A stretch of DNA of 12,567 nt from Promethearchaeota archaeon (lineage in GTDB: Archaea; Asgardarchaeota; Hermodarchaeia; Hermodarchaeales; Hermodarchaeaceae): assembly GCA_048939245.1 (NCBI GenBank), contig JBHLPR010000066.1:1-12567 (forward strand), written 5' to 3'. This document shows positions 2,695-4,537 of this stretch, piece after piece. Below the pieces are notes generated by a model. The model saw only the letters and a list, made by a program, of their open reading frames with translations, made no database searches and was not told the DNA's origin. How positions within the stretch are numbered: position 1 is the first letter of the stretch; each line of letters starts with the position of its first letter. The position numbers were made by a program, and so were the translations under genes.

Positions 2695-4215
2695 CTAATT
2701 TTCTACTGCTTTGATATAAGCTGCTAATTTAGCGATCTTGACTAATTTTTCTTTTCCACTTTTCATATCACGTACATTTACGGACTTCTTTGCCAGTTCT
2801 CGGGGTCCGATAATTGCAGCATATGGGATCTGTCGTTTACTGGCATCATCAAGATGTTTGGTAAGCGACCATGAAAACCCGTTGAATATCGTGCGTATCC
2901 CTGCTGCTCGAAGTTTTGAGGCGATTTCTCGGCAAATGCTGAGTTGTTTCTTTGATACGGGCGCGAGATAGATGTCTGCTGGTGGCTCCGGTGGTGGGAA
3001 AAGTCCAATCTCCTCTGCGAGTTCTAAAATGACGGTTTCTCCGAACCCAAATCCTGTTCCAGGTAGCGGCTGCCCGCCAAAGATCCCGACGAGGTCATCA
3101 TAGCGACCGCCACCTGCAATTGCACGGGGTAATTCACTTCGACGATCCCAGGCCTCAAAGATAATGCCCGTATAATAGTCGAGTCCACGGGCAATTCCTG
3201 CGTCAAATTCACATACGTCTGTGATTCCCAAATCATCCAGTTGTTTTGCTAGTTGGCTTAGGGGGTTAAGGGCTTGTTGTGTTGCTTCCGCTAATTGAAA
3301 CTCATTCATAGCTTGAAGGAATTCTATTGGTGGTCCCCGGATTGCAGAGAAATCTGTGAGTTTTTCCGCTGCATCTTGGGTTAAGCCAATGTTTATGAGC
3401 GCATTGATTAGCGCTTGGCGTTGGAGTTGAGGAAGTTGCCTTATCACTTCATTCAGTCTTGTTGACCGAGGAAGTTTCGGTTTTTCTTTTTGTTTTCCAA
3501 TATAGAAATGACGGAGCTTGAGCGCAATTTCTTCAGCTTTTCTAGCTGGGATTCCCGTCTTTGTAAGTTGATCAATTATTGTCTCTTGTAGAAGTTTTTC
3601 GCGGCGATCTAGCACACGGATTATTTCAATATAATTTGATAAGCCTAACTCATCGATGAAACTCTGGATTAGTCGGCGGTCATTAATACGAATAACAAAG
3701 TCCTTTGGTGCGAAGTCCAAGTCTAAGATGATGGCTGCTAGTATATTGATCACTTCAGCATCTGCTGCCACATCTTCAGTGCCCAATATGTCGACATTCA
3801 ATTGCCAAAATTCTTTGACGCGTCCTCGTTGTTGGGTTTCATCGCGAAATACTCGAGAAATTGAAAACCACCGTATGGGGCGTGGATAATATTGCTGTTG
3901 GACTGCTAACATACGGGCTAGGGATGGAGTTGTTTCTGGGCGTAAGACCAGTCGTCGCTCCTTGCGGTCAGTGACTTTGAAAGTTTCTTCAACAAGTGAC
4001 GGTCCCGATTTTAACTCATACAGTTCTATAGGTTCCACTGTGGGACATTCGTATTCTATGTAACCAAACAGTTTCGGGATTTCACGAAATGCCCTAAGTA
4101 TTCTTTCAATTTTCTGATAGAGTTCTGGATAAAAATCCCGAAAGCCACCCAACGCTAGTTCTTTGCTACGTTTCATTTTCAACAGCTCATATTCGTATTT
4201 CTCACTATTATCCAT
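2695..4215 (-). CDS. hisS: Histidine--tRNA ligase
   Basis: GFRDFYP, LRPETTPSLAR, motif 2 FRDETQQRGRVKEFWQ, HisA loop RGLDYYTG, GGGRYDDL, motif 3 GFGFG, C-terminal anticodon-binding domain. The start may be Met14 (4176). Confidence 0.97.
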   Translation of the reverse strand: MDNSEKYEYELLKMKRSKELALGGFRDFYPELYQKIERILRAFREIPKLFGYIEYECPTVEPIELYELKSGPSLVEETFKVTDRKERRLVLRPETTPSLARMLAVQQQYYPRPIRWFSISRVFRDETQQRGRVKEFWQLNVDILGTEDVAADAEVINILAAIILDLDFAPKDFVIRINDRRLIQSFIDELGLSNYIEIIRVLDRREKLLQETIIDQLTKTGIPARKAEEIALKLRHFYIGKQKEKPKLPRSTRLNEVIRQLPQLQRQALINALINIGLTQDAAEKLTDFSAIRGPPIEFLQAMNEFQLAEATQQALNPLSQLAKQLDDLGITDVCEFDAGIARGLDYYTGIIFEAWDRRSELPRAIAGGGRYDDLVGIFGGQPLPGTGFGFGETVILELAEEIGLFPPPEPPADIYLAPVSKKQLSICREIASKLRAAGIRTIFNGFSWSLTKHLDDASKRQIPYAAIIGPRELAKKSVNVRDMKSGKEKLVKIAKLAAYIKAVEN

Positions 4216-4268
4216 ATTGATAGTGAAAAATGGTGCCGGGACAGGGATTCGAACCCCGACCTAAAGCT

Positions 4269-4297
4269 TTCTGCATCCCATCTTTGAGAATGGGATT
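4269..4297 (-). other. tRNA intron 3, canonical 37/38, 29 nt
   Basis: Strict BHB: central helix CUGU/GCAG, bulges GG^A and AA^A, intron stem AUCCCAU/AUGGGAU. Confidence 0.93.
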
Positions 4298-4318
4298 CCA
4301 CAGGCTTCAATGCTACCA

Positions 4319-4340
4319 TTGCGCCTGGGTAAATACCAGT
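4319..4340 (-). other. tRNA intron 2, D-loop 15/16, 22 nt
   Basis: Central helix GUGU/GCGC, bulges AA^A and AA^U, intron stem CUGG/CCAG. Removal restores the D-loop AAUGGUA. Confidence 0.85.
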
Positions 4341-4347
4341 TTACACC

Positions 4348-4377
4348 TTCGGGAGCTGGTAACTAGCTACCAGCCTA
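4348..4377 (-). other. tRNA intron 1, position 8/9, 30 nt
   Basis: Central helix CGGG/CCCG, bulges AU^U and AA^G, intron stem GCUGGUAG/UUACCAGC, outer helix GUGC/GUGU. Removal gives U8-G9-G10. Confidence 0.85.
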
Positions 4378-4379
4378 AT

Positions 4380-4400
4380 CCCGGCACGGTGCCCGGCACG
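4380..4400 (-). repeat. 9-bp direct repeat CGTGCCGGG duplicating the tRNA 5' end into its leader
   Basis: Copies at 4400-4392 and 4388-4380 on the minus strand. Confidence 0.85.
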
Positions 4401-4424: not shown

Positions 4425-4440
4425 CAAAAAAACCTTTCCT
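4425..4440 (-). promoter_or_regulatory. Putative BRE/TATA-like promoter of tRNA-His
   Basis: AGGAAAGG-TTTTTTTG lies about 25-30 nt upstream of 4400. The same GAAAGGTTTTT motif precedes the M50 gene at 11218. Confidence 0.5.
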
Positions 4441-4537
4441 CTCTCAATTTAGAGCGATAACTAAAATTACATCGCGTATTTGCCAGCTGATTGGCAGATT
4501 GTAGACCCTAAACTGATTGGTCTATGACCGAGTTGTG

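Follow-up and report, generated by a model that had tools for sequence, protein, structure and literature searches.

A three-intron tRNA-His gene in Hermodarchaeia with a probable leader-encoded stand-in for its acceptor strand

The tRNA-His gene lying on the minus strand of the window (the whole stretch of 12,567 nt that was analysed, from a Hermodarchaeia genome) is interrupted by three introns, at positions 8/9, 15/16 and 37/38, and its leader carries a spare copy of the 5' strand of the acceptor stem. Probably, this is a functional gene whose introns are spliced by the EndA endonuclease and the RtcB ligase with the help of the leader in the case of the first intron. From the comparison of homologous loci and from folding models, the spare copy is most likely a stand-in that would hold the 3' strand of the tRNA during splicing to be later removed by RNase P. 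The three introns represent one more case of a published pattern; what appears to be new is the leader stand-in, of which no description was found in the literature searched (judged mostly from titles and abstracts). The copy was missed by the original prediction made on this DNA, and in folding models the helix required for splicing at 8/9 fails to form without it.

Exon-intron anatomy of the tRNA-His gene

The elements of the locus are listed below in the order of transcription.

4426..4441, minus strand: predicted BRE/TATA-like promoter, a purine run followed by a T run, read from sequence
4385..4231, minus strand: tRNA-His(GTG) gene, 155 nt, four exons and three introns
4378..4385, minus strand: exon 1, tRNA positions 1-8, the same in 20 of 20 loci under the parsing used; start of the spliced tRNA according to ARAGORN
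4348..4377, minus strand: intron 1 at 8/9, 30 nt; absent in loci L013, L015 and L016
4341..4347, minus strand: exon 2, a 7-nt micro-exon, positions 9-15, which gives the 5' strand of the D-stem and the central helix of intron 2
4319..4340, minus strand: intron 2 at 15/16, 22 nt, of the relaxed HBh' form; in all 20 Hermodarchaeia loci
4298..4318, minus strand: exon 3, 21 nt, positions 16-37, with the anticodon GTG at 4301-4299
4269..4297, minus strand: intron 3 at the canonical 37/38 position, 29 nt, full hBHBh'; absent in L013-L015
4231..4268, minus strand: exon 4, 38 nt, positions 38-76, with discriminator A73 and encoded CCA
4226..4230, minus strand: T run directly 3' of the CCA, read from sequence as a putative archaeal terminator
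2695..4215, minus strand: hisS, histidyl-tRNA synthetase, matching TIGR00442 at 319 bits (above cut-off); located 15 nt 3' of the tRNA-His gene

Excision of the introns (30 + 22 + 29 = 81 nt) from the 155 nt joins exons of 8, 7, 21 and 38 nt into a 74-nt tRNA, which ARAGORN calls as tRNA-His(gtg) with a score of 122.4, a complete cloverleaf and an encoded CCA. When intron 1 or intron 3 is retained the call is lost, and retention of intron 2 gives a score of 103 with a wrong anticodon. An alternative register for intron 1 (28 nt, leading to a 76-nt product) was discarded, as it scores 113.7 against 122.4 and is contradicted by the intron-less sister loci. The original prediction of a tRNA-His with three introns at these positions, a 7-nt exon and 81 intronic nucleotides whose removal yields a canonical 74-nt product is thus confirmed. 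It had also anticipated that scanners would mis-call the gene, and this was indeed the case for the two that were run: Rfam reported nothing, while ARAGORN reported nothing without its intron option and a false tRNA-Cys with it. Hermodarchaeia genomes do have tRNA-His, missed by these scanners.

At the level of the splice motifs, a 4-bp central helix with predicted cuts two bases 3' on each strand is present in all three introns, and the central helices are kept with one mismatch at most in all homologues. The prediction of such a helix for every intron was therefore correct, but that of two 3-nt bulges in each did not hold for intron 2, where the second 'bulge' is unclosed. The central helix of intron 1 is made by acceptor positions 3-6 paired with the end of the intron, and it consists of four Watson-Crick pairs in 15 of the 17 loci that have this intron, with one wobble in L012 and one mismatch in L014; its outer helix (one Watson-Crick and three G-U pairs) and its irregular inner helix make it a weak match to the hBHBh' form. 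Intron 2 has a central helix of two Watson-Crick and two G-U pairs plus an intron-side helix, its 4-bp intron stem being invariant across the 20 loci. An exon-side helix was found in none of them, and without it the intron failed a strict enumeration of BHB motifs, which did return the introns at 8/9 and 37/38; intron 2 fits the known relaxed HBh' class and not the full BHB. Intron 3 is the top BHB of the same enumeration (outer helix of 7 bp, inner helix of 8 bp), and its motif becomes the fold of minimum energy when the spare copy has been removed together with introns 1 and 2. With its four exons in normal order within 155 nt, the gene has no separate or reordered halves of the split or permuted type.

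Further evidence for the junctions was obtained from 20 distinct full-length tRNA-His loci collected from genomes and metagenomes. Exon 1 is joined directly to exon 2 in L013, L015 and L016, and exon 3 directly to exon 4 in L013, L014 and L015, exactly at the predicted 8/9 and 37/38 junctions, which are fixed in this way by the sister genes. None of the 20 Hermodarchaeia loci is without the 15/16 intron, so this junction rests on the cloverleaf, the helix and the variation in intron length (21-25 nt) between fixed exon ends. L016 (G015:C48) carries a 37/38 intron of 31 nt that is unlike the introns of the sister genus, while L013-L015 are without it, possibly reflecting a separate gain. The spliced product is 74 nt long in all 20 loci, with ARAGORN scores of 117.5-122.4 and 10 variable exon columns, while all 17 first introns differ from each other and so do all 17 third introns, with the internal stem and the central helix kept. 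The near-invariance of the exons and the constant length of the product in the face of diverging introns argue for a functional gene rather than a pseudogene.

In agreement with this, the exon 3 pattern has one match in the genome of origin and one per genome in 17 of the 19 genomes of the class; the two matches in G004 are the ends of adjoining contigs. The original prediction had named another intact tRNA-His as the alternative to be looked for, and none was found in the genome of origin, which is 88% complete, by an ARAGORN scan and a T-arm census. The gene is apparently conserved and single-copy. It could be argued that a second tRNA-His gene lies in the unassembled part of such a genome and that the present one is a pseudogene, or that the mature tRNA retains the inserts at 8/9 and 15/16. 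Both are hardly credible given the behaviour of the exons, the single matches across the class, and the loss of the ARAGORN call or the drop to 103 caused by retained introns.

The tRNA-His gene lies upstream of hisS in all Hermodarchaeia loci read, and a T run of 4-5 follows most of the tRNA-His homologues. The hisS matches in L005, L006 and L007 contain in-frame stops, probably falling within the upstream extension of the query, and L005 and L007 have frames of 494-495 aa that are free of stops; judging from these frames, the start codon of hisS at 4215 in the window may be upstream of the start used in relatives. Elsewhere in the window, a 36-codon ORF (5402-5292, minus strand) that overlaps the stop codon of a Get3/ArsA-family ATPase (6388-5402) has a basic N-terminus followed by a hydrophobic stretch up to the C-terminus, and it looks like a small membrane-anchored protein.

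The identity elements of this tRNA-His are also unusual. It has T at position -1 (4386) and A at position 73 (4234) instead of the G-1:C73 pair, and Thg1 (PF04446) was found in none of the 19 genomes of the class, which are 72-91% complete. The motif-2 loop of the adjacent HisRS is unusual. The enzyme shares about 40% identity with its Heimdall-type counterparts but only about 30% with those of other Asgard archaea, the nearest solved structures being PDB 1wu7, 3hrk and 3hri. These features suggest a G-1-independent charging of tRNA-His. Systems without G-1 have been described in Caulobacter, Trypanosoma brucei and Acanthamoeba (PMC4338351), in which G-1 is likewise not encoded; unlike them, the present case is archaeal and combines A73 with T at -1.

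The spare acceptor strand in the leader

Two elements precede exon 1:

4392..4399, minus strand: spare copy of the acceptor 5' strand (GT plus positions 1-6), complementary to positions 67-74
4386..4391, minus strand: linker (CACC), followed by GT at positions -2/-1 of the true exon 1, with T instead of G at -1

The spare copy is present in 17 of 17 loci with the 8/9 intron, 12-16 nt upstream of exon 1 (12 bases in the window), and in none of the three loci without it. In every locus all eight of its bases pair with positions 67-74, the sole change being a C to T that yields a U-G pair. Among the 31 tRNA genes of the genome, the duplex between leader and acceptor strand is strongest in tRNA-His (-17.5 kcal/mol, versus -11.5 kcal/mol for the next). 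In all 20 loci, whether they have a spare copy or not, the first T of the TATA-like run is found exactly 34 nt 5' of the first GT in the transcript region, and this constant spacing places the copy most likely at the very start of the transcript. A sigma-70 promoter scan gave no match, this model being unsuited to archaea. The nearest relatives by hisS, at 65-82% identity to that of the window, include genomes named Hermodarchaeota, which assigns the window to Hermodarchaeia within the Asgard archaea. In a HisRS tree a locus with the 8/9 intron and the copy is found at the base (support 91/88), while the three loci lacking both fall inside one unresolved group with L014. This distribution points to one origin of intron and copy within Hermodarchaeia, followed by one to three joint losses.

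The possible importance of the copy derives from the fact that the 8/9 helix needs acceptor positions 3-6, which in a tRNA are normally engaged in the acceptor stem, so that both structures compete. For introns 2 and 3, ViennaRNA gives near-zero probability to the helices when the full precursor is folded, so its absolute values are unreliable and only the contrast with and without leader is to be trusted; on this contrast, the 8/9 helix goes from a probability of 0.00 without the leader to 0.99 with the native one. In 16 of the 17 loci the helix attains at least 0.7 in at least one of two precursor states, and without the leader none exceeds 0.05; L014 shows no gain from its own leader. The median for shuffled leaders is 0.006, 16 of the 200 attaining 0.5 or more; the value is 0.64 when only the copy is present and 0.15 when only the linker is. 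The predicted fold of the precursor has the linker paired with exon 2; once released, the linker may form a small hairpin with the spare copy. Two further candidates were tried and rejected: the helix between linker and exon 2 as a separate EndA site, whose register differs between loci, and a single long intron starting in the upstream copy, positions 7-8 of which vary.

The repeat could alternatively delimit a fourth intron of 12-16 nt within the acceptor stem, at 3/4 or 4/5, in such a way that the mature tRNA starts in the upstream copy and the gene has four introns with an exon of 4-5 nt. In favour of this reading, the spacing of the promoter is set to the upstream copy, and the conserved GT at -2/-1 is retained at this copy but not in every locus at the second one. 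Thermoproteales are known to have introns at 3/4 (PMC4090602), and the window gene allows a formal helix of 4 bp to be drawn. This helix, however, arises only from the wobble-palindromic nature of the repeat: two of its four pairs are G-U in most loci and all four in L011, mismatches appear in L012 and L014, and a conserved 4-bp central helix at the repeat boundaries, by which an acceptor-stem intron of the 3/4 type would be recognised, was not found. The corresponding folds lie 9-18 kcal/mol above the stand-in-bound fold, and with a fourth intron four loci would have U3-G70 in their mature stem, the second copy being the same everywhere. The Freyarchaeia tRNA-Thr described below does not allow such a helix to be drawn either. 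Taken together, these observations make a fourth intron quite unlikely; at 2/3, 5/6 or 6/7 no helix was seen by inspection.

A different explanation accepts the three introns as real and spliced and regards the upstream copy as the scar (a target duplication) left when an insertion gave rise to intron 1. The copy would then be neutral, or retained to maintain the distance to the promoter, with EndA or a chaperone opening the acceptor stem unaided. L012 can be read as one insertion after position 8 that carried its own copy of exon 1, and one event of this kind would produce the co-occurrence without any function. Independent events are few, and introns 2 and 3 are presumably spliced despite the low probability of their helices in the model. 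A neutral scar accounts for the co-occurrence but not for the kept complementarity, since the copy retains eight of eight pairs throughout the 17 loci, with introns that are all different from one another and HisRS proteins 66-82% identical to that of the window. In addition, the Freyarchaeia copy extends to the discriminator and CCA, an outcome not expected from a duplication of positions 1-8. A scar devoid of function is for these reasons judged unlikely, and the leader stand-in is the reading followed from here on.

Processing enzymes, proposed order of events and a Freyarchaeia case

The genome encodes two EndA paralogues. The catalytic one has Tyr124, His132 and Lys163 and a loop aligning with the crenarchaeal-specific loop, the roles of the residues being assigned by analogy with the Aeropyrum enzyme. 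It aligns over its full length with the crenarchaeal catalytic subunits PDB 3ajv_B (E about 1e-43) and 2cv8_A (1e-39), whereas the second paralogue has no catalytic histidine motif and matches structural subunits. EndA of this two-subunit type cuts relaxed motifs (PMC4033280), and the enzyme encoded here would be expected to do the same. RtcB and RNase P RNA are encoded as well, and protein-only RNase P (PF08745) was not found in the genome. The gene of the second EndA (C59) adjoins tRNA-Tyr and tRNA-Asp; that of the catalytic EndA (C90) is located downstream of a PhoU-like ORF and upstream of an SPFH-like ORF, both named by inspection.

With these enzymes and the pairings described above, a model can be drawn in which transcription of the leader, cleavage, strand exchange, the RNase P step and the order of events are all proposed. 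The transcript would start at or just 5' of the spare copy, which would pair with the 3' acceptor strand (67-74) and free the true exon 1. The freed exon could then pair with the end of intron 1 to build the splice helix, with the linker paired to exon 2 and helping to hold the motif. EndA would cut and RtcB would join exon 1 to exon 2, after which exon 1 would take back the 3' strand, the leader would fold on itself and RNase P would cut it off at +1. The introns at 15/16 and 37/38 would be removed by the same two-subunit EndA, and intron 1 may have to leave first, as the linker covers bases needed by the helix of intron 2.

The weak point is the release of the stand-in. Once all introns are spliced out, the fold with the stand-in bound is still predicted to exceed the cloverleaf in stability by 2.6-7.8 kcal/mol in 16 of the 17 loci, in a model of secondary-structure energies that leaves tertiary contacts and the irreversible RNase P cut outside, so that release would need tertiary energy or irreversible capture by RNase P. 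A 'ratchet' in which RNase P trims the stand-in first at its own +1 was rejected: it favours the true stem in only 5 of 17 loci and the release problem stays.

Since the pattern within Hermodarchaeia amounts to one origin, a gene for a different tRNA in a different class was tested for the copy. The tRNA-Thr(CGT) of Freyarchaeia is listed from a tRNAscan-SE call as beginning at 1545409, with the first of its three introns at 1545401 (PMC11291895 Supplementary Data 4, row 32), and the locus was fetched from G053, a single-contig genome of 3.58 Mb whose coordinates fit the table:

L112:1910-1749, minus strand: Freyarchaeia tRNA-Thr(CGT), G053; first intron at 8/9; leader copy pairing through the discriminator and CCA, with one bulged base

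The copy is present, in this gene alone among the 37 of that genome. The gene has an 8-nt exon 1 and an intron that forms a 4-bp helix with acceptor positions 3-6, and its leader pairs with positions 66-76 at -18.3 kcal/mol, versus -8.4 kcal/mol for the next of 37 genes. In the folding model this leader lowers the true acceptor stem from 0.86 to 0.00, while the splice helix rises only to 0.23. The tRNA-Thr(CGT) of the Hermodarchaeia genome itself has neither the 8/9 intron nor the copy. Inspected by eye, an Atabeyarchaeia tRNA-His listed with a 13/14 intron (L181, G039:C1:471100-471450) has no acceptor copy upstream, in line with what is expected when the helix of the intron is independent of the acceptor stem. 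A search with the tRNA-His pattern in five Heimdall-type genomes gave no informative result.

On this basis we lean slightly towards a general leader-encoded switch by strand exchange in Asgard archaea for introns placed beside the acceptor stem, in which the spare strand would hold the 3' end and might in addition prevent the next splice helix from forming, thereby determining which intron is spliced first. Such a switch would have evolved independently across tRNAs and classes, perhaps together with the intron in a single step, as an insertion bringing its own copy of the tRNA 5' end would restore the gene and supply the helper at once. If true, it would explain how introns of this kind can be gained without killing a single-copy tRNA gene.

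Comparison with known systems

Interrupted tRNA genes are far from exceptional in this phylum. In three complete Asgard genomes, 92-95% of the tRNA genes have introns and over half of them have several (PMC11291895), and a 2026 preprint (10.64898/2026.10.13.758758) reports up to five introns per Asgard tRNA gene, D-arm introns missed by annotators and two EndA paralogues in most genomes. The view of the original prediction that multi-intron genes are best documented in Thermoproteales and triple-intron genes rare is superseded by these published Asgard genes. Neither can 8/9 be maintained as an unreported position: it is already on record in a triple-intron gene, the Freyarchaeia tRNA-Thr(CGT) discussed above, if only as a table row, and 15/16 is the site of the first intron in several rows of that table (PMC11291895 Supplementary Data 4). 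The present gene shares with the published Asgard tRNA genes the phylum, the several BHB-type introns per gene, the missed D-arm introns and the two-subunit EndA; it differs in that the main text of the published Asgard census contains neither the word 'Hermod' nor the word 'leader' and sets acceptor and junction sites aside as 'other'.

The genome of origin is moderately interrupted, with about 0-2 introns in the other tRNA genes inspected. Some of these genes have D-arm inserts and are mis-called or missed by ARAGORN (C26, +69143; C90, +6192; C76, +11367; C81, -13182; C91, +884), as illustrated by two genes starting with AGCCCGG that have two inserts each. The leader copy is absent from these other D-arm-insert genes.

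The introns of Thermoproteales (PMC4090602, PMC4033280) are alike in reaching up to three per gene, in the relaxed HBh' form, in the acceptor-stem position 3/4 and in a heterotetrameric EndA with a specificity loop. In contrast, 8/9 is absent from the positions that the review text enumerates, a list that ends in 'etc.', and a leader stand-in is not described there. A parallel is offered by the split and permuted tRNAs of Nanoarchaeum equitans, Caldivirga and Cyanidioschyzon (PMC4090602), in which a leader or trailer that belongs to no exon enables the splice motif by pairing and is later discarded. In those tRNAs, however, the leader belongs to the BHB and has a trailer as its partner, whereas here the leader copy would pair with an exon outside the BHB to remove a competitor, in a gene that is continuous and in normal order. 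The stand-in would thereby represent a concrete answer to the question of how a splice motif can be made from bases locked in the most stable stem of the tRNA.
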